A stretch of DNA of 54,967 bases from Catajapyx aquilonaris (Eukaryota), in assembly GCA_000934665.2 (NCBI GenBank), contig JYFJ02002547.1, positions 1-54,967 of the forward strand, given 5' to 3'. The notes below the pieces were generated by a model. The model saw only the letters and a program-made list of their open reading frames with translations. It was not told the DNA's origin and made no database searches. Below are positions 763 through 22,700 of the stretch, piece after piece. How positions within the stretch are numbered: position 1 is the first letter of the stretch; each line of letters starts with the position of its first letter. The translations under genes and the position numbers were made by a program.

Positions 763-851
763 TAGTTGGTTGAGATCAACGTTTCTGAGATGAATAGGCT
801 ACTGTATATCTATTTTCATACTCAATATAAATGAGAAAACATGAGACATAC

Positions 852-1741
852 CTTTCCTTGAGAGTAGAATCAGGCAGGCGCCGAAGCAAAGTCTCCTCTC
901 CTCCACCTGCAGTGTCTAAGTCTATAGCTTTGGGTTCTTCCACAGGTACTAGAAGTGTCTTGCCAAGATGCTGGTTGTATTGCAAACACCAGGCTTCAGC
1001 AGGAAAGCCAGTACAATACTGCCTCACTGAGCCTGGGCTCAGCCTCAACCACACCCCATCATCATTGTGCAATTCCTCCAGAAAGGCCACAGTCCCATCC
1101 TGATGCACCAACCCAACCTGCTCACCCTGAAGAGATGGATGTGCCCGAACACGTAACCCGGCAGAGTTCTTAGCTGAGAAACGACGCAGTTTGGGACCTG
1201 ACGTTGAGCATGGAGGGACCATCTGGTGTAAAGGTACAGGAGGTCGACCTGTGGGTGGTCCTGGGGCAGAGGCAGGGGCAGGTGACTGGCGTTGAGGGCG
1301 TACTGTAGGTACTACTTTTTGAACAGTTGCTGTTGTTGTTCTTGAAGGTGCCTCCTCCACCTCCATGCGATAAGTTTGGTCAAGTGTATATCCATCTACA
1401 GACACATGTATGGAATACCAGCCAACAGCACCAGGTGTCCATGTAGCACGATATGTCCCATCACCATTGGGACGCACCAGCAGTGTCTCTGAGGGCCTAC
1501 GTAGCCATGGAGAGCTAAAACGTAGCTCCTCAAATGAATAGCGCTCATACGCTTTCATCATGCTGATTGCATAGTATCGCATTTTGTCTTTTAGTGTTAC
1601 TTCATAGGGGGTGCTAAGAGATGGTGATGGGTGGCCCCCAAATGCAAGTGCATCAGGCTGGCTTGCCCGCCTTGCAGATATGTCACCTTCTCCAACTCCG
1701 CTGCCACATTTCTTCTCCACAGGGACAGCTCTCACTTCAAT
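852..1741 (-). CDS. MYCBP2: MYCBP2 coding exon 18
   Basis: IEVRAVPV...YSFEELRF...DGTYRATWTPGAVG...SAGLRVRAHPSLQ...NDDGVWLRL...EAWCLQYNQHLGK; donor AG|GTATG. Confidence 0.95.
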
Positions 1742-4700
1742 CTGGTGGTTGAACACAAAATTTTCTCACAATTAAGAATGTCTATGATATGCATACAATA
1801 AAAAAAATAACACTTTAATTCTTATTTTTAATTTTTAATTTTTATTTGTTACCCCGTGATAGGGCCACGGGCTCTTTCAGGGGGGTAGAACACCACCATA
1901 TTTTCCATTCAATTTTCTATGATTATTCTTCAGACACCATACAGGGATGAAAGGATATAGGGTACGGATGGGGATTTCTGGGGAAGAGAGACAGGTGCAG
2001 GTGCAATGTCTTAAATGTTGGGCCATGTGCAGTCTCCCAGGGATCTATGGCCTATCGGCCAGGTCAACCCTTAAAGTCCCTATCGAAGTCTCCCAGGACG
2101 TTAGGTTGCCAGACACCTCCAAAGCCGAGTCAGAGACCCTTCTGACTCAGGCGAAAGGGAACTCCCGGGTGGCGACGAACCCGGGACCTTTTACTCAGCA
2201 AGCCGAGGCATTACCATCTTGGCCACCACACCTCCCCCAAATAACACTTTAATAGTGTCCCATTAAGATATTTTGAACAATATTAAGTCATAGCAAGCTG
2301 TAGATGAGGTGTGATCCAAGTGTTGCTGAACTAATATTTTAGTACTTTCAAAAAAAGACTGCACCTACTAACTGCTGGATGCCATAACAGTCGTCACCTG
2401 CATTCCAACATACTTTCAATATTTTTCACTCTGTGCAGACATTCTTCAATACCACTTCCAGTGCCTCGACTAAATTGATTTGCACAGGCTTTACTTTGTT
2501 GAATCTTTCTCCCATTAGTGCCGAGTTTACTTTTAGGAAGAAACAGATATCATGATGTGCCAAATGCAATGAATATGACATTTTGGAAACCTGTGCCACA
2601 TCTTTTCTAAAAACCAGCTAGCTTCATTAATGGTCAATCACATGAGTCAACTAGCAGAACTTACCTGACAAATTATTATAAGTCACAAGCAAAACAACAG
2701 AGTAAGAACAAAAACAAACCCTCAGAGATGGGACATGCACCACATCCCCATACTGGTCCTTGGTGGTGACCTGCAGTGTGAAGGGCCACCCACATCTGAC
2801 AGGTTCCCTTGAAAAAGTGACCTCGCACCTTTGGGGATCGACAGCCGGGTCAGGCTGCAGCCAACGGGCAAGGCGTCCGCCACTAGTTCCCCCACTGCAG
2901 CTGATGAAGTCTCTCAGGAACAGCCTCTCATTCGAGTGCATGCTATGGAATAAAAGCATCATTTTTAGAGTGATTACCGCATAAATTAAGTAGAAAACAA
3001 ACCCACAATATTAAAATCATTAGAATATGAGGTATAACTTATCCATTTGTTAAATATACCTTGGTAAAAGCACATTGTAGCGTAATAGAGAAAAATATTT
3101 GTAATTTTTGTGTATACAAGATGCCACGTTCCATTCACTACCTTCAACTTCGACAAAAATATGATTGGGGAATACACATGGTAAGAAAAACAGTGTACAA
3201 TGGGTTAGCTGGATCTCACAGTATCTCATGAACAGGTAAGGTTGAAAAACATCACAGTTTGTAGCAGGTTAGTTTCTTAACAACACTTTCAAATTTTATA
3301 GAGCATTATTTCTCCATTCTGTCTGCTCAACATCTCCTCAACTTTGCATTCGTATCTGACGTCAATTGTAACATAACTGGCAAACCTCACAATACTCTAA
3401 ATCTTTATGGGTCTATCCACCTGTGTGTCTTAGAAGCATTTTCAAAAATAGCACTGTAATTAGCCCATATCTCCAATTTATACAGCTGGCCAAGGGACAA
3501 AGGCATAATTATACAATATCCCTATCAAAGTATGCATAAGTCTCAACTTTTCCATAACCATCATTTCTCATATCAACTATTCCTTTTGGAGTTATCTTCC
3601 AACACCATGATCTTATACAGGGTGTTCCAAGTATCCGGGTCACTTTTGGATAACCACTATCGTCTGATAGCAGTCATCCAAAAGTGACCCGGATACTTGG
3701 AACACCCTGTATATCAATTTAATCAGCACATTTTAGTACAAATACAATATAATTACACATGTAACTCAAATATATGATTTTATATTAATTTCAACATGAT
3801 TTTGAAATAATGTTTCTGAGTTTTGTATAGGTTATGCTTGCATTTCAACTACGATTCTGATTTTTAAATAACCATGATAATCCAACATGATTGTAAGCTG
3901 CCTTTCATGATCATCTGAAATCATGTCAAGTGAAACACAACAGTTTTTAGAAACATGGCTTCAACTCGTCATTTTCAAAAATATTTTGAAACTAATCTAT
4001 TTTGTATTTGAATTACATGTGCAAAATTCTACTAACATGTTGTTCAGATTAAATTGATATACAACATCGTGAGCTAGGCGGGTAATTTGGGAAGAAATAA
4101 ATGATGCAAGAAATTAATGAAAATTATGAATCTTATACGGTAGGCCTACACTTATTTTTGGGTATGCACTCACATGTAGACACCAAAGTTTCAATCCATA
4201 TACCAAGGGCTCAGCTACCTGATTTTCACATTAGGCATGGAGTGACACCAGGCTTAGGCACGACACCTGTCTCAAACCCATGGATTATGAAAATTCGTAT
4301 CTCAGTTTCTGATTGGGGCGAAAGAACTTTTCATATGTCATTGAAATATCATATAAGACAAGTATCGGTATTTAACGTTGTAAAGAATGGCACCAGGGGC
4401 GTATCTACCATAGGGGCAGGTGGGGCGACTGCCCCAGGGCCCCCGAGCAAAGGGGCCCCCGAATTTTCCGACGAGTTTTAGAAAATTTTGAGGAAACCCA
4501 CAAATCCACAATAGGCCTAACGTCTATAACTTATATTCTATATTCTATAAGACGTAAGAAACCGGGTTCGATCCAATCAATTCGGGGTCTTAGCTCGTAC
4601 TATCTCACGGTCAGACTCTCGCAGTCGCAGTGTCAGTAATCAGTATGGCACAAAAACAATGAAAATGAGAAATCATTACATTAATAGTTAGCCTATACGT

Positions 4701-7700
4701 AATCATTACGTATTACCAGTGGCGGATTTAGGGGGGGCAAAAAGGAACAAAAGAAAAAACGGGTGGAAAACTCGCAAAAACCCTCTAGAACAGTGCAATT
4801 TTGCGGTCGTGACTCCAAATTTGGGGTCGCGAGGAAGGGTTGTGACCTTGAACCGAAAAAAATTTTGCCTGCGGCGGGCCCTGATCGCCCCCCCCCCCNN
4901 CCCAGAAAAATTCCTGGATCCGCCACTGCTGCGTATTACTATGGAGGGGGCCCCGCGTACCTTTTTGCCCCAGGGCCCCCAAGAGTCTTGATACGCCAGT
5001 GAATGGCACACACATCTTTGCACCTTACGAGTCGTCCATAAAGTACGACATGCTGACCTTGGCTCCCCCTCCCCCTCCCCCTTCAGGAGTGGCCAACCTA
5101 GCTCCGGTTCAACATAACGTATACATAATTCGGTTTTCCAAGGTCCAATTACCACCATAATTACTTTCCTTCAAATAATTCGACTCGACTGGTTAAAATG
5201 AGCAATACCATGCTAATCTGGTTCCTTTCCGTGACGCCTATCATCATGGCATTCTTGATCACACCCAAATGTTGCAGTGCAGTCAAGAATGTCCTCAGTG
5301 GACTTTGAGCTCCAAACCAGGATTAAGAGTCCGACGTACACCATGTGCTGCATCTCTGACCGATCACACTATCAGATTCCAAGAATCAGTTTTTGAAGCC
5401 AAGCATACGTAGCTCTGCATTTAATATTTGTCAGCTTCAGATAGGCGAAGTTTCACCCCAGAATCACGCTACAGGCATTTCACTTGCGACTGACTGGGAG
5501 GATCCAGTACGTATAATGCCTGCTACAAATTGGGTAGAAAGTAGCTCTCAAGTCAGTGTATGGACCCCCAACAATCACTCTAATGTTAACGCAGGTTCCC
5601 ACCCATCCCTTAACCCTCCCACAAACAATTTGCAAGGGTTGTTGCGCGCAATTTTATTCTTCCTCGCAAATTGGAACAAAGTTGGCGACCTAGAAATTAC
5701 CCGCACGCTTCCATCTCCACCGTGAGAATAGAAACCTGCTCATCTCGACCCGAAGGACAGTCACCGCACCACACACTCGGACGCCCCCATCCTGTCAAAC
5801 GCAACCCGTCACGCGCATATGACCATCACCTTGGTATTCCACAGGATGAGTCGCCCCGGGCCAATCTTTCCCCCCAAAAAATCAGTTGCATCCATTCAAG
5901 CTGCACCTCCATCCCTCCATATGAATGAGTAATCAAATCCCCCCATCCAACCCCCGCTTCCTATTCTTGTCACGCCGTCCTTTTGGTGCACCTGGACGTT
6001 CTGTTCCGCTGCTAAAATGCCCATTTCCTCAGCCGGCACCCCCTTGATTCATTCAGCAAACGACCAATTCGCCTGACCCCAATTTGCGCGCTCTTCAACC
6101 ACGATGGCATGTAGTGCACCGGGGTAATATGTCCATAATGAGCTAATTGTGTGAATAAACGAAGAATGTGCCCGGTTGCAGCGCCTGCGTGCAGATGGCG
6201 GGTGAAGATGCGTAGGTTGGTAGGCCCGAGTGAAACCTTCCCCCGAAGAGAGTCCAAGAGGAGAGGGGGACCAGTTGAGCACGAGTAGTGGCCGGGATTG
6301 GTAGGGCGAAGAAGGCGGTCTGTGTGACACGAGTGACAACTAATAGAAGCATCTCTTGTGTGATGGTGGTGTCAAGCAGGCGCCCTTATAAGGGCAGCCG
6401 AGTGTGGCTGGGGGGAAGGTTCAGATGATGGCGTCCAGGCTTCTTCTGGTTCTGGTGCTGGTGGTGCATGTCGCCGCCCAGGCTCCCACCCCTCTGCCCC
6501 CTGACCCTCGACTAGCTGGTTCCTTATGCAGCTCCCCAGGATGCGCTTGCACCAGACAACCACAGCCGCCCGGAGGACTCCTCCTCTCCTGCACCTGTGC
6601 CCACACCCCGGATAAGGTAAGCACCTGCCATTGTCCATGCATTCCTCAACCTGATCCCTCCGCTTCTTCACGAGAATGGAATGTGGAGGTCCAGATGAGG
6701 ACAAGGGGGGGCCCCCAAAAAGAAATCTATCAAGCTAAGAGGAAGCAGATTGGGAGAGAAAGGATAGGACAAGAATCTGAGGAAGGGACGGATGAAGGCC
6801 ATCTGAGGACTCATTCGTCTATCTAACCGCAGATAAAAGATGTCTCCCCCCCCCCCCNCAACTGCCTCAGGCGACACCCATTCCCATGACTCTCAATTGT
6901 CAACAGGAAACGGCCGACTCAGATTGTCTCACTACCGCCGTCATTCCGTCAGGTTTCAATCTGAATCTGGCCAAGAATAACGTGGAGGTGTAACCGGCAA
7001 ATGGCGCGTCAACTTCGTGTCAACAACTTGGCGGTGATATTATGATCGTTGCGTCCTTCCTGTTCCAGTCTTTGTCACCGTTTTCTTCCATGTTGATAAA
7101 CATCTTTAGAGCAAAAAATAGCGGAGACCTGGCACAGAAATAAAAACGGGAGGGAAAAATAACGGGAAATGGGAAACAGAATACGTAGATAAATATATCT
7201 CGGGTGGCGCATATTAAGTGAGCACGTTTCGGAGGATGCAGACCGGAAAGCCTTGGGGAAGGCTCAGATTTTACAGGGCAATAAGGGCATGATATAAATA
7301 AAGCCATATTCTCCGAGACATTTAGTGCAAACCACCGTGAGAAATTGGCGCGGTTGGTCACCTGCGTTATCTGATGCTACGGTTTCAGGGTCGACGATTC
7401 CTTTTTTGTATTCCTTTTCTTTTACCTCCTACCTCCACCCCTCATTTCGCCAGCATGGTGGTTTGTAAAGTGTTCCCCTGCGAGGGTAATAGCGGGGTGC
7501 AGTGCCACGCCTTGACCCTGAAGGACTCATAGGAGCGCGCACGTCTCGACATGTCTGGACCATAGTGAGATAGTTGGCAGAGAAAGCAGTGCGCGAGGGC
7601 CAAGACTGGCGGGTTCTTCTTGCTTTGGGTTGTTGGCCAAGAGACATGCCCCTCCAACTATACAAAGACCGGTTCTCGCAATGACAAGGGGGGGTTCAAA

Positions 7701-10700
7701 AAAAAAAAAATCTAGCTAACTATCTCATTCTGTGTCCACCCTAGTCGTTAATGCGACGCTCATTGGACTATAGTGGACACGAAACACCTACGGACAGCAC
7801 TCCCTTGTAAACAAAATCGGCTTTTTCATGAACACGATCCCATTCCCTTATCTGTGGAAAATATACCCACGCATGACACGCATCTCTACTTGCTTCCTCT
7901 TCAATTACGAGCACCGCCCCNCCCCCCCCCTGCAAACGCCTGTCCATCTATAACCCATCAGCCGTGTATGGAAGCATCCATACGTGGTGCTTGGTGGTCA
8001 GCATGCACTCATGCCTTTTCCTCCTTTTCCTTTTGGCCATCATGCAAAACTCCGCACTGCCATGTATGGTTCCTTGGCCGCCATTCTCAAATCAGTGACA
8101 ACTCAAGGCAGGCCACCTCACCAGCCGCAGAAGGACGAATGTCATCCTAACCACTTTTTGTTGTTTACATCTTTTGTACCGCACATACCATATGCGCCCC
8201 ACTGGCCTGTCCCCCTTCCGCACTACTTGTTTCGCTAAGCATGTGCTTTCACCTGCACTTCCCCCATTGCCTTCCTTTTTTTGTGCTGAATTCAATCCAG
8301 ACATGAGCCAAACAGGCCCGCATGTGCTCAGCCGGGGATGCTCCAGAGGAGGAAGCCGCCACCAGCACTGTACACATCCGGTGTTGTCCACATTCATCCT
8401 GCCCGTTATCAAACAGTTGTTTCGCGATGGCCGCATCGAGTATACCATTTGGTACACTTCCAAGACGACTGTACGGTGTGAGAAAGTATATCATTCGTAC
8501 GTGTGGCCTACATAGCAATTGCGCCCTGGGGCACTGGAGAAAAATTTTGCGCACCTTGCCAAACTGGTCAAGACCTGTATACACCTTTAATGCGATAAGG
8601 GGCTTCTAGCACACATTTGTATGCCTAATAACAGCTTAACAAGTAGTTTTGACAGGCGCCTGCCGTCCTCCCACACTGTATTCGCGCCACAAGTTGAGCA
8701 AGTTGAGCGGAGGTTCCAGGAAAAAAGAGGTTCGCAGCATCTCTCAAGGGCGACGGCTGCAACCGATCTCGGGGAAAAAGTCGAGTCATTTGAGCAATCC
8801 GGGGTTGGCACGCATATGAATCAAGAAACGGACTAGAGTTAATGCGGAGGTCAGCACCTTTGCACTCACTGCTGACGTCACCCCCAAAAATCTGACAGGC
8901 CGGCCTGTTGACCTTTGTTCTTACGATTGTGGCAGACTCAATCCCTCCTGTTCCTTTTTCTTGGCACCAGTACGGAAACAAAGGTCGCGGGAGAAGGGGG
9001 GGTAGGGTTGTTGTTGTAATCATACAAAACAACTTGTTGAAATGTTTGGCAAAAGCCGCGATCGTGGAACAGAATGAATGGGAATGAATGGACGGCCACG
9101 TGGACCACTCGCATGTTTCAAAACGCAAACAACAGACCCGTTGTCTGTATATAGCTTTTTTTTTTTCTTCCCGCCCCATTTGGGCCCTGCATATCATCCG
9201 AGTCGGGTTCCATCCGACAACCGAGATCAATCAGCTAAAAAAGCAACGAGGTAAGCAGCATGTGAACAAAAAATCTGGCGACAAAAAGAGTTGTCAAAGA
9301 TGAGCCGCTCCGTCGGAGAGGCAAAATGGTCGCCAAGGGTTCTTGACCCAGAAGAAAGAGAGTAGCATCCTAACCACCCCCGACTAAAAATAGTGAGGGG
9401 CGGCATCCAGTGGCTATAAAAATGGGGTGAGGGCAGGAAATGGCACGAATTTCGCGCACCATAGTGTCGCCTACAGATTCCACCACAATTCTTTGTCATC
9501 GCCATCACACCATTAAATGACCGGGCCAAATATTTTGCTCGCTTGTCCCCCAACCATGGATCAATCTTGGGCCGGACTTTTCTCACCACAGCATTTATCA
9601 CTAGAGAGATACGTGGCAAATGGATTCGTTGAGGCGAAGTATGCGTTAGAGGTTGGGCCGGGTTCAATTAGAGGCATGCGAGAATAGAGAGATGGAAGAG
9701 GGCATCCACTATTTCAAAGTGGAGGAGGAGTAGGATGAATTAGGACGAGAGCCAGATGCGCCAGGAACTGGATTAGTGCTCTTCTTTTCTCCGGTTCTTC
9801 TTCTTTCTTTCTTTCTTTTTCTTTTTTATGTGGCTGCAAGATGAGCCCACCGCGACTGAGTCGGCGGCTCAACCCGACCACCCCGTATTTCTTTTTCTGA
9901 CACTTCCTGGAGGCCATTTTTTGCGCTTTTTTGCTGCTGCCCTCCCCGACTCAGATCCGCACAAAACAAACACGTGCGTGTCCTGCCGGTGACGTGTGAG
10001 ATTATTTTTATTTGCCATTTTTCCTGCAGGAGTTGCGACTGTTCCGAGAGGCCCCTGTACCGGAGGACATCTGGGAGGTATGGGTGGGCGATTGCGAACG
10101 AGTGGTGTTGGGTCAAGGGGCCTTCTGGCAGCGGGGCGGGTACCATCAGCGCCAGCACCAGCTGCGGTCATTGCAGCTGCAGGCGGTAGGCGAAGTGAAG
10201 GTGGAAGCCGATGCCTTTCTACAGCTGCCCAACCTTCGGAACGTCTCCTTCCGGGACTGCCAGCAGGTGCACCTGGCCAAGGGCGCCTTCCGCAATGTGC
10301 ATCAGGTGACTGACGGACCAAGGGTGCACTCATTACGTGTAATAACACCATGCTCTCTGCAGGAATGTCGACTGGAAGTGGACAACTGCGGGTGGTTGCA
10401 AGTCGAGGGCAACACCTTCGCCTGGATGAGGACCATCAGCATATACAGAGTGACCGATGTTCTGCTTCACCCTGGATCATTCGCCTTCCATGCCGAAACG
10501 GTAGGAAATGTGCGCACCTCTCTTCTACATTTCCACTATTAATGATGGCGTTGAGTCTGTCTTTCACGGCTTCCTTTGTTCCGGGTGACAAACAGATGTT
10601 CTTGTTACAGGTTGCGGGCCGAGAAGCAGTGGGTGAGGTGGAGATGGCAGAAAGCGGCCTGCAGGAGATCCCCAGCCATGCATTCCCGACCTCTTTGGCC

Positions 10701-13700
10701 TCTGTCAGACTGGAGGCCTGCTCGGTGGGGACTCTTCTGTCGGACGCATTCTCGCCCTTGTCCTTGAAGCATTTGCAGCTGGTCAACTGCAGCGTTGAAC
10801 GCATAGAAAAAGGAGCTCTTAGTCCCAGGACCCTCCTCAGCCTATTGGAACTGCGGGGGACCAGAGTGAGGATGATGGCTACAGGTGCCATGCAGTCCGG
10901 GATGGAATCCTTGGAGGTGGAGGAATGCACCCTGGACCACATGGAATCGGGGGCGATCCAGGCAACAGTGGTGCATGCACGCATATCAGGGAGTCAACTG
11001 GGGGAGGTGGCTACCGGTGCTCTGGCTCTGGCGCACTGGAGCCGCCTGGATCTGATCAACAACCGGTGGTTGAGGCTCTCTTCAGGAGCTTTGTCGCAGC
11101 TGAGGCCAGCTCCTGGTGGACCGGTGGCTCTTCACTTGGAAGACAACGTGTTCAGCAGCGCCACCGAGCCAACGTCCCTGAAGATACCACTAACGCTTGC
11201 CCATCAGCTTCACGCCAACGTTCGACAGAACCTCTTTGACGTCCCATGCCAATGCGACGGCGGTTCTTGGCTGCGAGAACTGTGCTCGACCCCTGAGGAC
11301 CACGACCTGACCTGGTTTGTTCTGCTGTTTAACTCCAGCTGGTGTCGTATGGACCGAGCTTTGGCTCTCTGCTTGGGGATGGACACAGCCGAGGCCGACG
11401 ACGTAGAAGTGGAGGGGCACTCGACCTTTGTGGCAGTGGCCAACCATACTGATGTTCTGTGCGGAGGCGGTGCTGGAGCCGGATCCGAAGAGCTGCATGC
11501 CTGTTTGGCCACGGCGGCTTCAGTCTCGGAAGAACCGCACCCGATGGATGGCGAAGGCGACATCAATTCTGGCACCACTATGGAGCTGGACGCTTCTAAG
11601 CATATGCTTTTGGTCATCTTCCTGGCCGTGGTTTGCACCCTGGGAGTAGCTGGAGCGGTCGCCGTGGCTCTATACGCCCGCCGTAAAAATGCACATCACC
11701 TGTCCAAAAGGAGTGTGCTCGAAGAGCCTGTTCTGGCTCCACCTACCCCGGCTCCAACAGGGTTGCTGCGCCAGAAGAAGGAAAAGGACAACCAGGAGAC
11801 TGACGACGAAGACGACGACGAAGATTCCCGAGCCGACAAGGCTGTCCAAACGCTGCCGGACCAACTTACGGCAGAATTGCTCCAGTCTCTACGTGAGAGG
11901 CTGGAGGACCCTTCGTCTTTCGTGGAGGCCAAGGACGCCATTGAGCACCTGTACGACCTCGTCAAGGTGAGTGCCACCCAAATTCCGTACGTTTCTAGGT
12001 CATGGGCTCCCCGTCTAATGACCCACCCACGTCATCCACAGGTGGAAGAGGCAGCTGCAGCAGCCACCACCTCCGGAAACGGGTGGGCATCGACCGGTAC
12101 TCAGTGCAACAACGACTACGAACCAATAGTGCTACGACCACCGCAGTCACAGTGTCCTAGCACCCAGCAAAAGAAGGAGTCCAAGAGCAGCACCTTCGCT
12201 ACACCCAAAAGTTTCTGGCTACGTGTCCGTGGTCCTCGGGGCCCGTTGCCACTTCAGGACTCCCCTCAACCAGGCAGGCAGACACAGCAACCCGCAGGAC
12301 AATACGCCCGGCCTAACACCTGTTCGAAAGGTCGGCCACCTTCCATGTGTGGGGTTGGCGGCGCCGTCCTGTGCGACTACGCCGAGCCCAGGGACGCCCC
12401 GGTGCATATCTACACCGAGATTGGCCCCGGGGCTGACGTCACCACGCGACGACGATCTGGAGCTCCCCTCCTGCAGAGACTCCAGCCGTTCTTCCGCATC
12501 GGAGGTTCCAGATCATCCGCCAACAACTGCCCCGCATCCCGACAGCCCCTCTCCCCACCAGTATGCGACTATTCCGAACCGAACGACTCTCAGGTCCATC
12601 TCTACGCGGAGATATGCCCTCCTCCACCTCTTCACCCCCCACCACCACCTCTGCACCCACCCCCATCTCACCCACCTCCACCTCCTCCTAACCGGTGACC
12701 ACCTATCACCCCACACTATACGCCGACAGACATTGAGTACATATATACCTAGTGCGACTACGAATATGTCGCACGGTGTGTGCCTTTCGTCTTTATTTTA
12801 TTTTATTTTCGCACCCGTCTTGCCACCTGTCTGGAGCACGGGCATATGTACTATAGTGTGAAGTGCACTCCTCTGCCTGCCACCATCCGTCCTCCGCTTC
12901 TCGGGCCACTACCTCAGGGATACATCTGGCACCAGCCATTGAAGTTGCCATTTCAAAAAAATAATAATGGTGCAGTCCAGCACACAAGGTGCCTTTTCTT
13001 TCTAATCCCTGCCACCATATAGACCTTTTCTTCCTCTCCGCCAGCCAAAAATTCCTCCCTCCGGAGCAACAAGGTGTGTGAGCAGCCTGCCCGGCCAGTG
13101 CCAAGACTCTAAAGTGCAAAGAACCATTTCCGGCGTTAAGAGCTTGGCAACCCACTCACGGGAGTCAATCCTCGACTGCTGCATGTGATGGATGGATAGA
13201 TGGATGTATGGATCAACTGAGACATGGACGCATTTACACTTTAGGGTAGTAGTGGTGTATACAGAGTACGAACTGTGATATGCGGTGTGATGCAATAATA
13301 ACTCAGATAAACCGTTCTTCTGCCTACTGGTCATTCATTTCCTCCTAATATAACCAGAGGTAATAAAAAGGACCCTCGTCCCCCTTTTTCTTTCGCGAGG
13401 GGTATGTAGCATAGTCACAAAATTCCGTTGCAGACTTGTCTTGAAAGGTGTTTTTCGAGGCGGCGGGGGCTATTTCCAGACGCTGGCTTAGAGAGGCCTG
13501 TTGGACGGCGGCCAGCACTGGAAGAAATCCGCAAAAAGATGTGTGGCCGGCCATGCAGACATTGCCCTCTTCTTCAGCCACCACCCCATACACACGCTGC
13601 CACCACATCCAAATAATTTGGGGGGCGGCCAATCTGGCTTTTGTTTTTATTTATCCAACTCCCCAACCCTGACTCTTTATGAAGGAGGTGATGCTATTCA

Positions 13701-16700
13701 GGTGGCAGCCTTTTTCCGGTCCTCATAGTTCCTTATCTCGGTTGCTCCAAAACACGGCCTCATTCAAAAAACAACCCAGCTGCTTATCGATACTTTGAAC
13801 GACGGCCTCTTTTGATCTCCCCTTTCCGGCAGCCATATAATTAAATCCGTACCACTCATCTGTATAGATCCAGCCCGTTTCTCCGAATCGATGCTGTGTG
13901 CCAACACAAAGTCGCGGGCAAGGACTTCAACATCACTGGCGGATAGAGCATAATCAGCCAAATGGACCTCACCCGTCTAATTGGATAAGTGAATCGGGAA
14001 TCATGCCAGCAAGTTCTCTCTACCAACATTGCATGCCTCATCTACACTCTGCTCTGCACCTTTCACAGATTATGCCAACCCCAATCCCTCTAAACGCCTG
14101 CTCCTTTGCTTTCGAAATTCCAGCTATTACATGGGTGCTGTGGGTGTCGCAACCGGGCTCTTGATTGGAGCAGCACTGTTGCCGCTTCAGCTCTGAACAA
14201 TATGACCAACAGGAAATGAAGCTCCCGACCTGTCCTGATTAGATGTCCAAGCAAGGGGTCAGAAACCGGTCGTTCCGGCTAATTTCTCAGGACCAATTGC
14301 AAAACAGCATCGTGTCCTCTGATTGTCTTGTAACACTCGACGGATTCATCGAACGCGGTCTTTTATCATCAAGTGGGCGGAATTGATGAATCCAGAGGCA
14401 ATTGACCTCTGGAGGTGTTTCGTCCTCGCGATTCACGATGAGAGCCCTCGAGTATTATGTTATCTATTATTGGGAAAGAGGCGTGTTTGTGATGATGATG
14501 ATTCGCGTGCTGGCGTTATTTCCAGATCCAGGTCATCCGCGCTCGAAAAAGCCGGCAGGCAAAATAGGTAGTGCTGGGGATGGGCTAGGGAGGGGTGGGA
14601 GGGTGTCTCTTCTTTTTCCATAGTTTTTTTTCTCCTGTCTTGTTGTTGCCACTAGTCCCACCGAGTTTTTGGGGGTTGCCAGGGAAACTCTGGCCCACCC
14701 ACGCCCGGCAGGAGTGCTCCCCTCCCTAGTGTCCCCCCCTCATTCCAGCCCAATAATCCTTCGCTCTCCCCTCCCTCCCATGCAGGCGAATATTGGAGCA
14801 TGGAAGAGGGAAACCTACTGACTACCGACCCTCTCCCTCCAGCTCTCACTCATTCTGGTCCCTTCCTCTTCCCACCCCTGCTCCCTGCCATTCAGCCAGC
14901 CCTGCCCCACGGCCATCCGGCTATTCCCCTCTCAATCTGACCGGTATCTTTTCTCCACTAGACCGCACCTTCACCATGGGGTCTCACACCTAACCGCTGG
15001 AAATACACGCTCTCATTTTTAGAATCCAGCCGCATTATGGTGACAACAATCGTTCTGTGACTGCATGTTACAACATAGACGACCCATAATATAGGCTGGG
15101 TGAGGGAAACTCTAAAATAAGAACCCGACACTGGCTAACCTGTCACATTGTGTTTGTTACAAGGCGCCCTAGAATTTCCCAATGGCGTTATTGGCAGGTT
15201 TGGCCAAAGTTCCCAAATTCTTAAGTTGAGCTCGCAAGAAAACCGGTGTCGTCGGGTCACGCCCGCTGCGAGCCATCTGCATTCTTGAGCGGGAATAATT
15301 TGAGGTCACATTATGAATGGACGTAAACGACCAGATTATTTTGGATTCACAGCAGGTGGATGCTAGTTTGTTCACATTATAATTCCGCCATTACGAGCGA
15401 CCAACAAAAGTGCATCGTACTCTGCGGTGTGCCAAAAGGTATACCTCATGCTCAAATAGCGTTGCCACAATATCAATTCATTATTACTATTTTGAATAAT
15501 AATGCCACCAACAATGTGTCCCCATCAGTCTTATGATTTTCCTGGGGTAAAATTACCATTAGACATTGCACCATAGGTAGAGTATATAATGTCTCTTTGG
15601 GGGGGGGGGGGGGGGACCANNNNNNNNGTGTCCCACAGAGCTGGTATACTTTAGAAAACCAAACCGCATATGTTTAAGGAAGAAATATATATCCTCCCCA
15701 GATCTAGACCTTCCCCGTTCCCCCTCATGACCATCCAGAAGACCCTTGGCCACAACCCTGCTGGGTTTGGAAAACACTGTTCTAGGGTGTGGCTTCCTCA
15801 AGATGACAAGGGGACAGCACAATCTCTGTCACTCATTTCCATACACATCACATGGTAGATACAGTCAATGGCGAACAGCCAGTCAGTGGGGGGGAAGGAA
15901 AGGATGGTTGAAGGGGGGGGGGGGGGTGAGAGGTTACAACCACCCCTCCGTGGGATTTTAAAAAATCAGATTAGTATTATCTGAAGACCAGAATTAGTCC
16001 ATGAAAGTTACACAATACAGCTCGAGTCTTCCGGCTGTAATCTATACCATATCTCCTCCTCCCCCTAAACCACCTTCCCGCCGAAACGCAGCACACGTCC
16101 ACTACTGGTTTACCTAGATTTCTATGCGGAGGATGGGAGCTGCTCCGGAAATATGTCCCACAACCCCATCTTTATGGGTACATGCTATATACCAGCTACC
16201 CTGCGATTCTCTCTTCTTCTCACACCTCAAGGACTCCCTGGTCAACCAGCACCTAAGCTCTCCAAGTGATGTTCCTTTCCAATAGCCACAGAACAGTTTA
16301 TAATGGGCTGAGAAATAGGTGCAAGGTAAGACTTTTCATTTAGTGCCGACCTATTACTCTTACTTCGTCCAACCACCAGCATCAGTGGGGAGTTTCAAGG
16401 ATAAAAGAAGAGCAGAAGAGCTCGAACTATGCCTCATTCATGCCGCAGGCTACTACACACTTACAATGGGCCATAAAGTCGTACCGGAAGGCCTGCAGTG
16501 CATGCCCGCCTGGACACAACAAGCTACCAGATATGCTCAATCTACAAGGGCACACAACTGAAAAAACTTAGGAGTCGGTTCTTCGTCATACCTTTTAGTA
16601 CTATTAACGCTAATAGTAGCTTCCCAATTATAAGTCACTGTGTAAAAATGTTGAGTCAAGTACGGTTACTACTATGTCTAATATGTTGACAACCTTTCCA

Positions 16701-19700
16701 ACACATTCAAGAAGCACTTTGGGATCAAGGTAGCAAGAAGGCTGACTATATGAAGAAGTGTATGTGACCTGATGACCAATGATAATTACTGCCACATATG
16801 TGGAGGTTCATCTGCTCTGAACACTACAAATGAGTCAGTGCTGGGAATCGCAGATGCTCTTTGCCACTGGTTTCTTCAACACGTCACAAACACATATTAT
16901 AATTACCCCTTTGTGCTATCTTGACCTTTGCCCACCAGTGTTCCACTAACATTGTAAACACGTCTTTAGACCTGTGAGTAACGATGCCTGAACTTCAACA
17001 TCCTGCTAACACTGCCATTCTAAAGCTATCGTAAACGGTGATGCATCAACGTGTATCAAAGAGTCAGATGGCAGTACATGAATTTCATGAAGATGTATCA
17101 TATTTCTTCAGACAGGGCAATGTTGCCACTACCTTTTGCCATCCTTACAGAATGATATTCTCAGGTCAATGGGATGGAATAATGCACACCTGTCCTGAGA
17201 GCTTTCGATATGTTCATGACATACAGTATAATGCCCACCAACAAAACATTCACTGTCAATAAAAAGGTAATATCAAGGTAGACGTAAGTTCTATCCCAGT
17301 AATAGCATAACTGATCCTGTTGGTCAGGAAATTAAAGAGCCTAATTCCGTCCAGGTTGATATAAAGATTAAATCGAATAAATTTTGCAGACAAGACAAAT
17401 TTAGTTTTCAATAGGTGTATAGCCTCTTAATCTGGGTGTAATAAGAAAGGTACACTTTCCATACCTGTTCGACTTTTCTTCGTTTCAAAAAATCATCAAA
17501 TCCACATCCACAGATAAAAGCTTACTTAAATAAGATATTTTGAATATAACAACAGTGCAGGTCAGGCTGCCTTGAAACTGTTGGAATTCTTTTTTTAAAT
17601 TACAGTTGTCAAAGTGGTAGGCAATAGAAGTTGGCAGTTATTTTCATGTAGAAGCTTTGATACATTATTCTTAATCATGAAAATGTATTACAGGAGACTC
17701 CGGATATATCAGACTTCAAGGGACTGCAGAAATCAGTCTGCTATAGCCGAGGCCGTTATATCTGGAGTCAACTGTATCAGGTTTCAAAAGTATACCATTT
17801 GGCCATAATATTCTTAAAAACAGACTGCCACCCAATACATGTACAAAAGCTCACTTGTATTTAGATGGTACTGCACACAAACACCATGTCAATTTTTGGA
17901 ACCATGGTAACAAATCATGTAAGCCTGTGTCAAGCACTCCTACAGTCACGCCCATTCTTTAGTCTCTTGGTCACTTCCTATGCTCCTGCCTGTCAAAAAT
18001 TGGCTACACTTACGTAACGGGAGACCCCGCACTTTTACCTACTCGCCTAGGGGTTGAAATAATTTAAACGGTCTTTCCAGCTGCTGAAGGATAGGCGTGA
18101 ATCCGCCAGAAAGGTTAGGTCATGGGGTAGGTCGGTATCCCATTATGAAAGTCCTTCCCAAAAATTTCTTGGAAGAGGCAAAACAAGCGAGGATAATTTG
18201 GTGTGAGGTCTGGGCCATGGTCTGGACTGTTTGGGGGATGCTCAAAGATGTTCCAATTGAACTTTTTGATGATAGTGGATGACAAGACTGACTACACATT
18301 ACAGGCCTTACACGGGAAGTACTCAAAGTCTACAATACTGCAATTCAAGTGGATCACTCTTGAGCATCTTCCACATGACATTCACTTGTTTCATCACCAT
18401 ATGAAAATTTTTGGCAGATGAGAGCCTGTAAAGTGTAGACAGTGCAGAGAGTGACCAAGAGATGAATGTATAGGCTTGGAGGCAAGATCACTAGCTAGTT
18501 GCTTACAAAATCAGGTACCACAGCTTGAAAAATACTTTGACTGACATGACGCTTGTGGGAAATCTTTTTAAAAAACACAGCCAAATGGTATTCACTTTTG
18601 TAAGACAGAAATGCTTGCAGTCCAAGTTGTAATTTTTTATTTTGTCTGAAGTAGTTAAATCTTGTCAGTTTTGGACTGCTATAACCTCCCATTTTTGAAG
18701 TTTTTATGACATCAACACCTATTCCTCAGCACTTGGTCTTATCGTGCACTAATGTATTTGCCAACAGATGTACTCTCGTACAAATCCCCATTAAAAATAA
18801 ATACATAAAACCCGATTTGGGAGTGACAAATTACCCGCTGGTATCATAAGCATTATTACTTAAAGTAACACAATAAATGGGTAGTTCTGTACTTGGTATG
18901 ATCCATTCAGTCAACCCTGCTTGTGAAGTTGTGGTGGCTTTATGTCCTGTCTGATACCACCCTCATTTCCTTTAGAAATATTCCATGTCATTTGGTATTA
19001 TTACTCTTTTCATGCTAATGACCCATAATCAACCAAATTATTGCACTGCAAAGAGTTGCAACAGATAAAGCAAATGAGTAGCAATTTGGGAGAATAATCC
19101 CAATCAGATACTGATATATCCAATTTGCTGAGCGAGTAATCAAGTACAGGGAATTGCAAAAGGTGAACCAGAAAACAAACAAGTGCAGTTTCAGACCCAC
19201 TTCACACACTCAATTCCATCTCTGCATGTACAGGTGACAAATAATTATGGTCAAGACACATCAGATGCTTCTGATACTACTTGCTACATGTGGCATCTCT
19301 CTGACGCAAAGCTTAAAATTTCAATACATTCGTCTAACTGGTTTGGTAAGTACAGTCTAACTTCTACAAATCAAACTTCCCTAATAAGTCCTGAATAAAT
19401 TGAAGAAAAGCATGGCATTGGTTGGTCACAATGTAAAGTACTAGAAATTGATCGTTAAAAATCCAGTAAAGTGTTACAACTGACCCCAGGCTCCTCTATA
19501 AGTGAGAGCTCCCAAAAAAAAATCTGGAATAAAGGCACCTATTTGCAAAGTTTGAATGAAATACATGCAGTATAGTTCTGACTGAGACTGTGCTAGCTCT
19601 TACCTTTCTGGAACACACTGCATTTACAATGGTTATAAACAATTTTGGAGAGTGAAGAAATATTCAACATTCTACCACAATGACCTCCTAATAAAAACTG

Positions 19701-22700
19701 TGATGTGGCCCTAGCCAGAGCAGTAAGGATGAAAAGCACCCTGGAGAGAAATAATGCCTAACTTACACTTACTAATGTATTTGTGAGAGTACTCGTTAAA
19801 ATATCTAGCTAATTGTCAGAAGCTCAGTTTTATACAGAATTTCCACAAAATTTTCAATAACTTATTCCAACAATTCAAAATAAAGAAATTTCCACATACC
19901 TGTACGGCAAGATTCCCTCAAGGGCCTGCAATACACTGGGAGGATGTGCCAAAGCAAATCCCTTGCTCAGCAGACTGGAGTGTGCTTCAAAGATTTGCTG
20001 TGCAACTTCCTCTACTGCCTCCATATCTTCCTCCACCTCCTCCACAGATGCTGGGGGTAACAACAAATCTCGCCTGAGCAGTGATGCCGAACACATCCCA
20101 CCAAGATATGCAAGTTCTGTCTCCAAGTGCACCAGGGCTGCTCCTAGACCTGCACTAGCACCACCCCACTCATAGCCTTGCACCAAGCACCGAAATCCAT
20201 AAAAACAAGCCTTTTCATCCCGCACATAATCCGAAGCTGTCTCTAGGGAGAAGACTACTTCACTGCCAGGAAGTACCACAGCCATCTGGGGCCATCCTTT
20301 GCTCCCACTCAGTCGCCTCAATACTGGCCAGTATGGAGGGTACCCACTTCCTCCCCCTCGGGGTACATAAAGCTGGAGGGTATCCTCTGCCTGAGCTGTG
20401 CCACACCGTGGGTCGAATTCAAGTGCCATCCACTGGACTGTGTCAGGGAAGGCAACCTTGTAGTTGGCAACTGTGGCTGGCTTGTATGGATGAGGTGATT
20501 CTACCCAGGCATAGTGCACTGTTGTGGTGTGAGGTGAGGATGCAGGGTGGGTTGGAGATGGGGGATCATCAGCCAGGGAAGAGGAGGTGCTCTGTTGGAG
20601 GCCATTTGTCGTGTTGTTCAAGGCAGCCACATGTGGGAGAAGCTCACGCACCAAAGACAGCACTTGAACGGCACTCTGAAAACACAATGAGTAACTGGAA
20701 TGTTTAATCTGTATAAGTGGTAAAAGTACATTTTATTCCCTCAGTACCTAAAATATATCACTGATATGTCTTGATGTTCTTTTTTCCTTAAATAATAATT
20801 GCAGAAACAAAATAATGGCTTTATAGAGTTTTCATTTCACAAAAGTGCTACTAATTCCTGTGCAAATAATTGTCAGACACTGCTGCAGGGGTGATGTGGA
20901 AGGAGAGAGGCCCATATTGGATTCACCATGACAAACTTACGTTGAAGTAGAGTTATAAATGTTTGCATAATTGCGTGGAGTCATATAAGATGGGCATATA
21001 TCTGCCTGGAGAGATGGCAGGCCCGTGAAAGACAACATTTATCACCATCCAGTCAATAATTATCCATGGCAAAAATACACGAGTCCTCTATGATGCAGCA
21101 CAATTTTACCATTGAGAGCAACATGTTAGTAGTACCGTATTACCTCTAATATTGCGGCATGGTGGTATAAAACGAGGTCGACCAGCATGCCGGTATAACC
21201 CGGGGGTGGCCGGCATGCCGCAATAACCGCGGTAGATTTCCGTAATTTTGATCCTTGTCAAATTTTTTGGAGTGCTTCTGGTACCATACTAAAATAATGT
21301 TACAATGAAAATGGTCAAGTGTACAGGCTGTGAGAATATGTCAGCTCTGTTGCACAATGCATTTAAATAATGTAGAGTGTATGACCAATCCCATTGACAG
21401 GGGCACCCCCTGCTCTAACATATACTGTTTAAATAGAGATTATTGCCAAACACTGCTATTGAAAACAATATATGGTACGGGTACCCTATTTGGAAAATGT
21501 GCCTTTTCGATGGCCTTCACGTGAATTTCGATTTTCAGGCAAATGTAAAGTTCAGAAAGGATAATGTAACTTATGTGAAAACCTCGCCTTATACCGGCAT
21601 ACCTCACCCTATACCGGCACGCCGGTATAGCCACCAGATCGTGCATTTCTAAAAACTGGTCCACCTCGCCTACACCGGCATGCCGCAATATGAGAGGTAA
21701 TACGGTACAATATACGGTACAATATACCGGTACTAAAAACATTCCATTTTGAGATAACTCTGCAGTGAATCTGTTAAATATATGACAAAATCATACCTGT
21801 TGAGATCTAGCAAACATTTTTTAATGAACCCATTTATAATTAATCCAGGATATGTTACAAAACAAGATCCACTCCACTTATACTGGATATGGGGCATGGA
21901 ATTAAAAATTTGTCTCAACCCCCTAGAACAGTGGTTCACGACCCCAATTTAGGGGGTCGCAACCCGAAAAAGGTTGGGAAACACTGCCCTAGAACCATAA
22001 CTGACTGACTTACCCTTGGGTGTGATGCTGCAACTGGAGCTACATGTGCCAAAACCAAAGGCAGCAAGGTAGTTACCACCCCAGCGCTACCCAGAACTCC
22101 TAGTGTACCAATATCTTGGGCAGCAGCTCCTCTGGCTGCCCTAAGAAGGTCAGCACAGGATGACACAACTGCAGAAGCAAGAGCCAGAGTGGCCTTCCTG
22201 GCCCTCATCTGGGCTAGCACTCTCTCTGCCCTTTGGGAATCCGAGTCTTGTGGATAGCTATAGTACAAAACTTGCGGGAGTTGACCACGGGTCTGATTGG
22301 TGCCATTGAAGCTCAGTGAGCAGGTGCCAAAAAAGAAAGTAGTGCCATCAGGGCCTTTTACAGAAATGGCTCCACCATCTCCATTGCTGGTGCGCCCTCC
22401 ATGGTTGCGCAAGCGAAAGGCATACTTGCATCCTTCTTTGACTGGGACAGGCCGTTCAAACCTGATTTCTGCAACATCCCCTACACAGTCCTCAGGGCCA
22501 AAAGTGCCTCGGGCAGTCTCAAGGCTGTTCCACCGCTGGGCATGAGATTCTCCTCCACTTCCACCGCTGCCCCCTCCTCCAGCAGCTGCTCCGCTAGCTG
22601 ATCCACTCCCTGTTGCACCAACACCACCACTGCTGCCACCCTAATAAATTAAAAAGCAAGTAAGTAAAGGCATGTCTCTCACCACTCACCTCAGTGGACA

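Follow-up and report, generated by a model that had tools for sequence, protein, structure and literature searches.

The window (the whole analysed stretch of 54,967 nucleotides) harbors a complete five-exon gene, embedded in antisense orientation within a single intron of MYCBP2/highwire and belonging, with high probability on sequence grounds, to the be orthogroup, whose fly member would very probably be ben. Taken as a whole, the explanation that we prefer and consider reasonably likely is that of a be-family receptor, nested long ago in its host and endowed with a cytoplasmic tail for phosphotyrosine docking.

The nested gene and its host

The nested gene spans positions 6425-12698 of the plus strand; the splicing and translation of its five exons yields a protein of 872 aa with no internal stop, and all four introns are GT-AG and in phase 0. 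Exon 1 (6425..6616, aa 1-64) encodes the signal peptide and a Cys-rich N-cap (C35, C40, C42, C56, and C58); intron 1 falls six codons beyond the last cap cysteine, the same position and phase being observed in the fetched loci of relatives. Exons 2 (10030..10305, aa 65-156) and 3 (10363..10500, aa 157-202) encode degenerate LRR/beta-solenoid repeats, and exon 4 (10611..11966, aa 203-654) comprises the remaining solenoid, a Cys-rich C-cap, the stalk, the transmembrane (TM) helix, an acidic linker, and a helical hairpin. The cysteines of the LRRCT-like cap (11247..11504, aa 415-500) are invariant across the family in two alignments; the single TM helix (11604..11675, about aa 534-557) corresponds to a hydropathy peak of 2.7 and to a long helix in the model; the cytoplasmic hairpin (QTLP...LYDL; 11835..11966, aa 611-654) is modelled as two helices in both of the models. 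Exon 5 (12042..12698, aa 655-872) contains the tail, predicted to be disordered from a relative's model, and the stop codon. Two paired-tyrosine motifs, each with its tyrosines 11 residues apart, are located at 12375..12422 (starting at aa 766, Y767 and Y778) and 12567..12614 (starting at aa 830, Y831 and Y842), followed by a poly-proline end (12618..12695) with one PxxPxR. On the same strand, string matches disclosed a putative TATA-like element (6387..6391), 38 nt 5' of the ATG, and a candidate polyadenylation signal AATAAA (13362..13367).

A family profile was built from 120 relatives, the window sequence being left out. It matches exon 1 with an E of 0.004, exons 2-3 with 2e-15, and exons 4-5 with 2e-108, and no match better than E 0.9 was found elsewhere in the window, which thus contains one family gene. 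Among four splice forms tested, the five-exon one scored best (467 bits vs 457, 456, and 435), and the skipping of exon 3 costs 32 bits. The idea that the gene might have died or fallen silent, or that its reading frame arose by chance, has a negligible probability in view of 872 stop-free codons over four canonical introns, of the 467-bit match extending from aa 6 to aa 854, and of the retention of all the cap cysteines, the hairpin, and both tyrosine pairs; that the gene is real is virtually certain. The first-pass annotation was therefore right in describing a complete five-exon gene coding for a signal peptide (a signal-like stretch at aa 1-19 by hydropathy, which also gives the one TM segment) and a tail rich in tyrosine motifs and proline.

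The host, lying on the minus strand, is MYCBP2/highwire, a PHR ligase, as judged from the sequence of the 18 coding exons of its 5' part (850..46288; exon edges are approximate save for exons 16 and 17). The gene extends past the low end of the window, beyond which the C-terminal RING and tandem-cysteine ligase module would be located. RCC1 and two PHR domains score above the Pfam cut-off, and the PHR domain matches the solved MYCBP2 PHR domains with an E of 1.5e-38; the filamin and Nup98_GLEBS-like matches of exon 18, which would answer to the filamin repeat and the RAE1-binding segment of PHR ligases, are both under the cut-off. Highwire models from insects and from krill placed coding exon 16 at 19900..20675 by tblastn, with 48-51% identity, and its splice sites were read; coding exon 17 (2720..2942), spanned by none of the fetched homologues, is assigned from its being in frame with exons 16 and 18 and from the domains of exon 18. 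Between them, intron 16 (2943..19899, 16,957 nt, GT-AG, phase 2) is the largest of the host, the second largest being about 5.9 kb. The whole nested coding sequence falls within it on the opposite strand, so that the antisense nesting in a host intron of about 17 kb, already proposed from the sequence alone, is borne out. Highwire/MYCBP2 is a regulator of synapse growth.

Family membership and the cytoplasmic tail

A sequence search retrieved 130 relatives at E≤1e-3 and 66 at E≤1e-10; hence, the nested gene is not the orphan it had been taken for. Named members account for at least 49 entries, from at least 48 insect species, among the 120 listed of 185, and springtail, mayfly, and housefly members are also present. 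Each named insect has one member among the entries listed, with the exception of a 285-aa partial copy in Apolygus. On these sequences, the family is mostly single-copy and the window gene is its Catajapyx member.

The only gene name found among the members listed, carried by one of the 49 named records, is that of a wasp protein, Chelonus XP_034938612.1, which NCBI calls "uncharacterized protein be". It aligns with aa 34-860 of the window protein (24% identity, pairwise E 6e-60) and shares with it the caps, the hairpin, and the tyrosine motifs. We take be to be the symbol of Drosophila ben (CG32594), a long-term-memory gene. PMC4235465, citing Zhao et al. 2009, gives ben as CG32594 and describes its mutant as one affecting long-term memory and interacting with Scamp. 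The likeness to ben is drawn through the full-length wasp protein rather than from the fly sequence itself; no Drosophila family protein appears by name among the matches listed, the nearest being Musca LOC101895188 (E 1.4e-4), and CG32594 gave no matches in the six supplements of the extracellular-LRR catalogue published in 2007 (PMC2235866). Since the hairpin of the housefly member is strongly diverged, the function known from the fly may not carry over. If the assignment is right, an "uncharacterized" memory gene would gain a testable identity as a receptor of type I that combines a straight, LRR-derived solenoid with an unnamed conserved hairpin and paired tyrosines.

Within the family, conservation is highest in the cytoplasmic part and above all in the hairpin, whose mean majority-residue share is 0.71 vs 0.40 in the solenoid; its comparison with Pfam gave nothing better than E 0.1. 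The paired-tyrosine motif has the form YxxP...YxE, the second half (HxYxE[LI]) lying 11 residues on. At least one copy occurs in 134 of the 142 hairpin-bearing members and none in 20000 shuffled tails, and the spacing of 11 is kept in 165/221 motifs. The C-terminus of 127/142 relatives carries RPLPxxP (shuffle rates of about 0.001 or less), a common and yet not invariant trait of the ben family, absent from the window protein, where the poly-proline end with PxxPxR is found instead. Such Pro-rich ends can act as SH3 ligands, and the Src SH3 site of p130Cas resembles the RPLPxxP of most relatives. An Asn-rich stretch, a possible SPRY-domain degron, follows the hairpin in 73/147 relatives and is absent from the window protein.

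The paired-tyrosine motifs are probably SH2 docking sites, and a phosphotyrosine-docking mechanism, which these motifs suggest, appears somewhat likely. According to PMC10470053, the SH2 domains of RasGAP prefer pYxxP and bind tandem sites, with partner classes defined by tyrosine spacings of 6, 18, and 19-28; the spacing of 11 of the window protein fits none of the three, and its second tyrosine is in a YxE[LI] rather than a YxxP context. YXXP is also the Abl consensus, and phosphorylated tyrosines of Dok1 recruit Nck (PMC2172353). Dok1 and p190RhoGAP likewise have repeated YxxP in a disordered tail; unlike the window protein, they are cytosolic, and there is no homology. In the preferred explanation, the product would be a non-catalytic type I receptor whose straight solenoid might bind a partner on the cell surface or in the matrix; a kinase of the Abl/Src type could dock via its SH3 domain on the Pro-rich end and phosphorylate the YxxP and YxE tyrosines, after which pYxxP-preferring SH2 proteins (of the RasGAP, Nck, and Crk types) might be recruited, so that contact at the synapse would be relayed to actin and to membrane traffic.

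Age of the nesting and relation between host and guest

In the louse Menopon, PYX00_001618 (the 5' half of highwire, one isoform of which terminates at the intron-16 donor) is followed by the family member PYX00_001619, with consecutive accessions and equal-sized contigs, in records flagged UNVERIFIED_CONTAM. In the mirid bug Apolygus, four tags separate GE061_005112 (highwire, terminating at the intron-16 donor) from the family member GE061_005117, again on equal-sized contigs. The family member lies one or five locus tags from the highwire model in both of the two comparable species, i.e., those in which a single assembly provides locus tags for the two genes, and in which strand and the 3' half of highwire are not visible. 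Highwire models terminate at the intron-16 donor in 9 of 21 named species, krill included, a figure that is inflated because the proteins were capped at 2080 aa and models crossing the intron could not appear. Drosophila be presumably lies within hiw, in line with indirect mapping. The mapping places CG32594 next to CG5541 and hiw: PMC1308810 gives rover{}133 in CG32594 and HB{}134 in CG5541 as consecutive transposons of the Drosophila X, and PMC3424412 puts hiw and CG5541 in one 16-kb interval.

The pairing looks old, since other insects appear to keep both genes together, and it is quite likely that the nesting is shared with insects. On this view, the gene would already have lain antisense in intron 16 of highwire when the insect orders diverged, and perhaps as early as in the pancrustacean ancestor, so that this nesting seems far older than most of those known in flies. 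The earlier proposal of a conserved host/nested unit is indirectly supported as far as the tag adjacency in Menopon and Apolygus, the model ends at intron 16, and the position of CG32594 near hiw are concerned; on the other side, none of 13 metagenome loci of the family carries a highwire exon, although their upstream flanks reach 8.6 kb and their downstream flanks 8.9 kb at most, and exon 16 of the window sits 7.2 kb beyond the stop of the nested gene. A full-text literature search, whose coverage leaves out subscription papers and among them the ben paper, returned no account of a ben-in-highwire nesting.

A further question is whether host and guest form a functional unit, the receptor being a substrate or partner of Highwire/Fsn, or transcriptional interference in the same neurons preserving the nesting. 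This might be suggested by the memory phenotypes, as olfactory long-term memory is lost in ben mutants (PMC4235465), while highwire mutants, according to a review, gain long-term memory with fewer trials, i.e., with the opposite sign. The linkage also seems to persist in the louse, bug, fly, and Catajapyx lineages, whereas in a published survey no more than 20-34% of nestings are retained, even between one Drosophila species and another, and the conserved hairpin implies a conserved partner inside the cell. In contrast, published surveys indicate that co-expression or a functional relation between host and nested genes is not the rule, and in PMC3814207 they are co-expressed less often than neighbours; moreover, the putative degron is missing from the window protein.

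The closest comparable pair, tim2 (timeout)/2mit (PMC3786989, Baggio et al. 2013), also speaks against a functional unit: a type I TM gene of LRR type lies antisense in a long intron, is kept across distant insects and has a memory phenotype, and no functional relation was found between the two genes. The nested gene was also considered as 2mit itself and set apart by description, its architecture and host being different (872 aa, TM at about 534-557, highwire), since 2MIT is a protein of 1141 aa with 16 canonical LRRs, a stalk that is long and rich in Thr, a TM at 931-953, and a tail of 187 aa. As tim2-2mit is a precedent for the arrangement and the counterpart in flies probably already has a name, the highwire nesting does not represent a novel type of system; it differs from tim2/2mit in that its host also regulates synapses and memory.

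On the whole, a functional unit is considered unlikely, and the preferred explanation is that the nesting has most likely persisted through inertia, or because the intron contains enhancers, rather than through a biochemical link to Highwire. Slightly more doubtful still is the stronger version in which highwire-be would be a host-guest module 450-500 million years old, with a synaptic phosphotyrosine receptor as the guest and its level set by the host ligase or by host transcription. If true, the opposite memory phenotypes of the two fly mutants would reflect a single switch, and part of what is seen with large deletions of hiw, or with insertions in ben, would be due to the partner gene. Since host and guest both alter long-term memory in flies, with opposite signs, alleles with deletions or insertions in this hiw intron may affect both genes.

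It might also be that the family is often near highwire and a mere neighbour elsewhere, or that the nesting arose repeatedly in a large, insertion-prone intron. Locus-tag adjacency reveals neither strand nor enclosure, and the metagenome loci without highwire exons are in line with this possibility. However, in both comparable species the highwire model terminates exactly at the donor and the family member comes one or five tags on, a pattern that a gene past the 3' end of highwire would not give; that one gene should have entered one intron several times independently also seems unlikely. Both scenarios together are thus regarded as improbable, in favor of a single and old nesting.

The ectodomain and the fly gene CG5541

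The repeats of the ectodomain are LRRs of degenerate type, and the model shows a straight beta-solenoid, not a curved horseshoe. The description of the protein as an LRR receptor holds for the Cys caps and for the extracellular LRR proteins matched by the family profile; it is weakened by the score of Pfam LRR_8 (18.4 bits vs a cut-off of 27) and by the straight solenoid of the model. At E≤0.01, LRR_5 and LRR_8 were each found in 9 of 28 members and Beta_helix in 17, and the Pfam scans of the five exons and of these 28 members revealed no Ig, FN3, TIR, or other domain. Lyases and tailspikes with a parallel beta-helix head the fold matches, with Z 16.3 for the exon 4 model (rmsd 3.2 over 202 residues) and Z 20.1 for a relative's model (rmsd 4.0 over 328); TSHR, FSHR, and NgR2 reach a Z of 13-14.

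These structural matches and the Beta_helix hits might suggest an ectodomain that binds or cuts polysaccharide, or else a receptor that is mainly non-neuronal (epithelial or muscle adhesion, or immune sensing). Against this, only extracellular LRR proteins are found by the family profile among the best 60 of 119 PDB sequence matches (LRIG1, E 9e-24), with no lyase or tailspike among those 60, so that the likeness to the latter is one of fold only; identity in the structural alignments is 14-17% with LRR receptors vs 5-13% with lyases; the LRR-type Cys caps are invariant; and the only genetic data known for the family, those on ben (PMC4235465), are neuronal. The probability of such a role is accordingly low, and a neuronal receptor derived from LRR proteins is preferred. 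The solved sequences closest to the family profile are those of extracellular LRR receptors (LRIG1, LRRC15, NGL/LRRC4, the Nogo receptor, and the TSHR/FSHR ectodomains), which share the Cys caps; the window protein differs from them in repeats devoid of most canonical Asn and Leu positions, in a straight two-stranded solenoid whose model fits beta-helix proteins equally well or better, and in having no Ig, FN3, or TIR domain. Its signal peptide, single TM (from hydropathy and models), and Cys-rich caps match the LRR_Only class of Dolan et al. 2007.

To this class belongs, as a singleton, CG5541, which the first-pass annotation had put forward as the fly counterpart and which is described as an SS-LRRNT-6LRR-TM protein of 463 aa, with a TM at 401-423 and a tail of 40 residues (PMC2235866). 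That the window gene is an orthologue of CG5541, or a paralogue of be, is very unlikely. The likeness consists of a signal peptide, an LRRNT, few recognisable LRRs, one TM, and the mapping with hiw. The tail of the window protein has 315 residues and that of the family about 300, whereas the 40 residues of CG5541 are too few for the hairpin and the tyrosine motifs by which the family is defined; CG5541 was therefore rejected as probably wrong, being set apart by description and not by sequence, and the sole gene name on a member remains be. A paralogue would also be at odds with the one family gene of the window and with the one per named insect among the entries listed, the partial Apolygus copy excepted. 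Lastly, exon 4 has a score of 0.93 with a cluster of arthropod beta-helix/LRR proteins of 439 aa in the Atlas, which is in line with the CG5541 assignment and suggests that a short-tailed paralogue may exist.

The nested gene and its host intron

The host gene, transcribed from the minus strand, is MYCBP2/highwire (hiw in the fly): its RCC1 and PHR domains score above the Pfam cut-offs, exon 15 matches the solved MYCBP2 PHR domains (E 1.5e-38), and highwire models of insects and krill cover 16 exons, tiling the stretch from 46288 to 19900. Because no homologue compared spans exon 17, this exon is assigned by its frame continuity and by exon 18, where filamin and GLEBS-like domains are hit below the cut-off. 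The intron between coding exons 16 and 17 (19899 to 2943, minus strand, 16,957 nt) is by far longer than the second-largest host intron (about 5.9 kb), and a plus-strand gene (6425-12698) is entirely embedded in it; the antisense nesting described in the first-pass annotation is therefore real.

On the basis of splice-site reading, the nested gene is composed of five plus-strand exons (6425-6616, 10030-10305, 10363-10500, 10611-11966 and 12042-12698), separated by four GT-AG introns, all in phase 0, and the spliced ORF consists of 872 codons with no internal stop. A family profile was built from 120 relatives longer than 600 aa, leaving out the window protein; in the window its matches are confined to exon 1, exons 2-3 and exons 4-5, and the five-exon model reaches 467 bits, beating three alternative splice forms. 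Moreover, the position and phase of intron 1 are the same in the nested gene and in the fetched loci of its relatives. The gene is thus real, and its description as an intact five-exon gene holds. By hydropathy, the product begins with a signal-like stretch (aa 1-19) and has a single membrane-spanning segment (about aa 534-557). Two plus-strand elements, TATA-like at 6387 and AATAAA at 13362, are string matches only.

The lengths of intron 4 (11967-12041, 75 nt) and intron 2 (10306-10362, 57 nt) are divisible by three and both are stop-free, so that their retention would keep the frame; the spliced form outscores each form retaining one of them by about 10 bits against the family profile. The host intron between exons 8 and 9 (36006-36079, 74-75 nt) is likewise readable in frame (ORF 35402-36655).

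No second family gene was found in the host intron by the family profile and tblastn, nor any other coding content by Pfam on 18 intronic and 6 other ORFs; Rfam likewise returned nothing. Upstream of the nested gene, the same intron harbors an inverted repeat (3614-3713) with 48-nt arms, 94% complementary, and a 4-nt loop, which looks like a small foldback transposon. Near-duplicate ORF translations (29784-30453; 32622-32963 with 32069-32314; 28110-28656) suggest that host introns 9 and 10 contain local repeats, and host exon 13 (25767-25900, minus strand) carries a low-complexity Ser/Gly-rich insertion.

Relatives and architecture of the encoded protein

The nested gene had been regarded as an orphan, and a word-index protein search with 10611-12695 as the query matched none of 8000 candidates. 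This empty result was overturned by an exhaustive HMMER search with the same query, which disclosed 130 proteins at E ≤ 1e-3 (66 of them at ≤ 1e-10, 9 of them at ≤ 1e-30), the named relatives belonging to termite, stick insect, wasp, springtail, beetle, mayfly and housefly. The termite protein's conserved cytoplasmic block, used as a further query, hit 185 of 214 candidates; the best 120 of these 185 include 49 rows naming 48 insect species (a single row per species, except for Periplaneta). Orphan status is thus rejected, with at least 48 insect species among the matches listed.

Unnamed relatives of 460-810 aa (P0169, P0173, P0183, P0185, P0186, P0190, P0192, P0194, P0197, P0198, P0201, P0204, P0216 and P0233) form a clade with good support, in which the hairpin is reduced and one terminal LYxDP-like motif takes the place of the paired tyrosines. 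Within an intron of a relative (locus L007, 4351-5045), there are ORFs resembling a decayed transposase, presumably of the mariner/Tc1 type.

As for the ectodomain, Pfam LRR_8 falls below its cut-off in the window protein, and among 28 members, at E ≤ 0.01, Beta_helix was found in 17, LRR_5 in 9 and LRR_8 in 9. The AlphaFold models of exon 4 (mean pLDDT 79) and of a full-length relative (78) depict a confident all-beta solenoid, a Cys-rich cap, a membrane helix, a two-helix hairpin and a disordered tail. In the structural search, beta-helix lyases and tailspikes come first both for exon 4 (Z 16.3, rmsd 3.2, 202 aligned) and for the relative (Z 20.1, rmsd 4.0, 328 aligned), closely followed by TSHR, FSHR, Nogo receptor 2 and Lingo-1. 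Foldseek against the PDB gave no match at E ≤ 0.001, its top rows being LRR proteins with an rmsd of 8-11. The possibility that the ectodomain is an enzyme was set aside, since the best 60 of the 119 PDB sequences matched by the family profile are all extracellular LRR proteins, with LRIG1 at the top (E 9e-24). The LRR assignment made at first sight needs a qualifier: these profile matches favour it, and neither LRR_8 nor the leading structural hits speak for it; on the models, the ectodomain is read as a putative LRR fold whose curvature has been lost.

The most conserved part of the family is the cytoplasmic hairpin (0.71 vs. 0.40 for the solenoid), for which there is no Pfam family. One or two copies of the motif [DE]YxxPxD...YxE[LI] are present in 134 of the 142 hairpin-bearing members, with the tyrosines 11 apart in 165/221 motifs, and 127/142 end at the C-terminus with RPLPxxP; the shuffle rates are near 0.0001 for the paired-tyrosine motif and near 0.001 for the RPLPxxP end. 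The tail of the window protein contains two paired-tyrosine motifs and a poly-Pro end in which PxxPxR replaces RPLPxxP. Motifs of these two forms are SH3 ligands, as in p130Cas. Three short blocks conserved in the family, i.e., SISRxS.HEY (just inside the membrane), VEESCNNN and GTRAPS, are absent or weak in the window protein.

An Asn-rich degron was dropped, as the stretch is absent from the window protein. An ITAM/ITIM reading was also rejected: the first tyrosine lies in YxxP in all 197 motifs, a position fixed by the counting pattern, and a His two residues before the second tyrosine in 168/197 is a further ground. The SH2 domains of RasGAP have a preference for pYxxP and can bind sites in tandem (PMC10470053); Abl has YXXP as its consensus, and Nck is recruited by a phosphorylated site of Dok1 (PMC2172353). 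With tyrosines 11 residues apart and YxE[LI] as the second site, the family motif fits none of the three partner classes described for RasGAP (PMC10470053). Judging from its sequence, the window protein is most likely a non-catalytic receptor with a scaffold tail: a kinase would dock on the Pro-rich end, the paired tyrosines would then be phosphorylated, and SH2 adaptors might be recruited after ligand contact.

The probable fly counterpart and the age of the nesting

A family member from Chelonus insularis (XP_034938612.1), whose record name is "uncharacterized protein be", aligns with aa 34-860 of the window protein (24% identity, pairwise E 6e-60). NCBI passes such gene names on by orthology, and be is the FlyBase symbol of ben, a gene that presumably lies within hiw. 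In the literature, ben is CG32594, a long-term-memory mutant interacting with Scamp (PMC4235465); CG32594 does not appear in an extracellular-LRR catalogue (PMC2235866), which describes CG5541 as an SS-LRRNT-6LRR-TM protein of 463 aa (TM 401-423; X:14,878,045-14,885,437). Transposon rover{}133 is located in CG32594 and HB{}134 in CG5541 (supplement 1, PMC1308810), the numbering appearing to follow chromosome order, and one 16-kb window contains both hiw and CG5541 (table, PMC3424412); CG32594 is therefore a close neighbour of hiw. CG5541, the fly candidate first proposed, probably gives way to be, since its 40-residue tail is too short for the family-defining modules. The nested gene is probably the counterpart of ben.

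Linkage was assessed in the two species for which a single assembly supplies locus tags of both genes, and was found in both. In Menopon gallinae, the 5' half of highwire (PYX00_001618, with one isoform stopping at the donor of host intron 16) and the family member (PYX00_001619) have consecutive accessions, the records being flagged UNVERIFIED_CONTAM. In Apolygus lucorum, a highwire half (GE061_005112) stops at this donor too, and GE061_005117 is the family member. Two tags further, GE061_005119 (P0360, 285 aa), sharing a 90% cluster with the full receptor, might be either a partial duplicate or an assembly repeat.

Highwire models end at this donor in 9 of the 21 named species with a partial model (ant, louse, three beetles, moth, two bugs and krill), a count limited to proteins of up to 2080 aa, so that models crossing the intron are invisible; this suggests a long intron at this position in all nine. 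Gene predictors thus split highwire here, and many database entries are consequently half proteins.

At 13 metagenome loci of relatives (from 230 pattern matches) no highwire exon was detected, even at E 5; their flanks reach at most 8.6 kb on the upstream side and 8.9 kb on the downstream side, on contigs that may be shorter than the intron, and in the window exon 16 is located 7.2 kb beyond the stop of the nested gene. No other recognisable host gene was found at these loci, as expected inside a longer intron. In the receptor trees, the window protein falls outside the main winged-insect clade, each of the three times in a different place, and in the highwire tree the window lies just outside the sampled insects, without support; because of this instability, the nesting was not dated from the window. 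The suggestion that orthologues occupy the equivalent hiw intron gains indirect support from the linkage in the two species, and the 13 metagenome loci count against it; the pair is probably old, its linkage outside the window being read from locus tags and model ends.

Relation between host and nested gene

In the full-text literature searched, subscription papers excluded, no paper was found that describes the nesting of be in hiw, dates it or treats be as a receptor; the arrangement itself is not new in kind, and the fly gene probably already has a name. A functional link is attractive because both fly genes have memory phenotypes: ben mutants lose long-term memory (PMC4235465), while highwire mutants form it from fewer trials (review PMC4806438). 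The base rate from surveys argues against it. Nested genes represent about 6% of fly genes and no host-nested co-expression was found (PMC3786989, PMC3814207), only 20-34% of nestings are retained among Drosophila species, and the nearest precedent, 2mit in tim2, has no functional relation to its host (PMC3786989). A direct link between highwire and the receptor is accordingly considered unlikely; it has been argued in the same source that enhancers embedded in an intron can give a nesting long persistence (PMC3786989).
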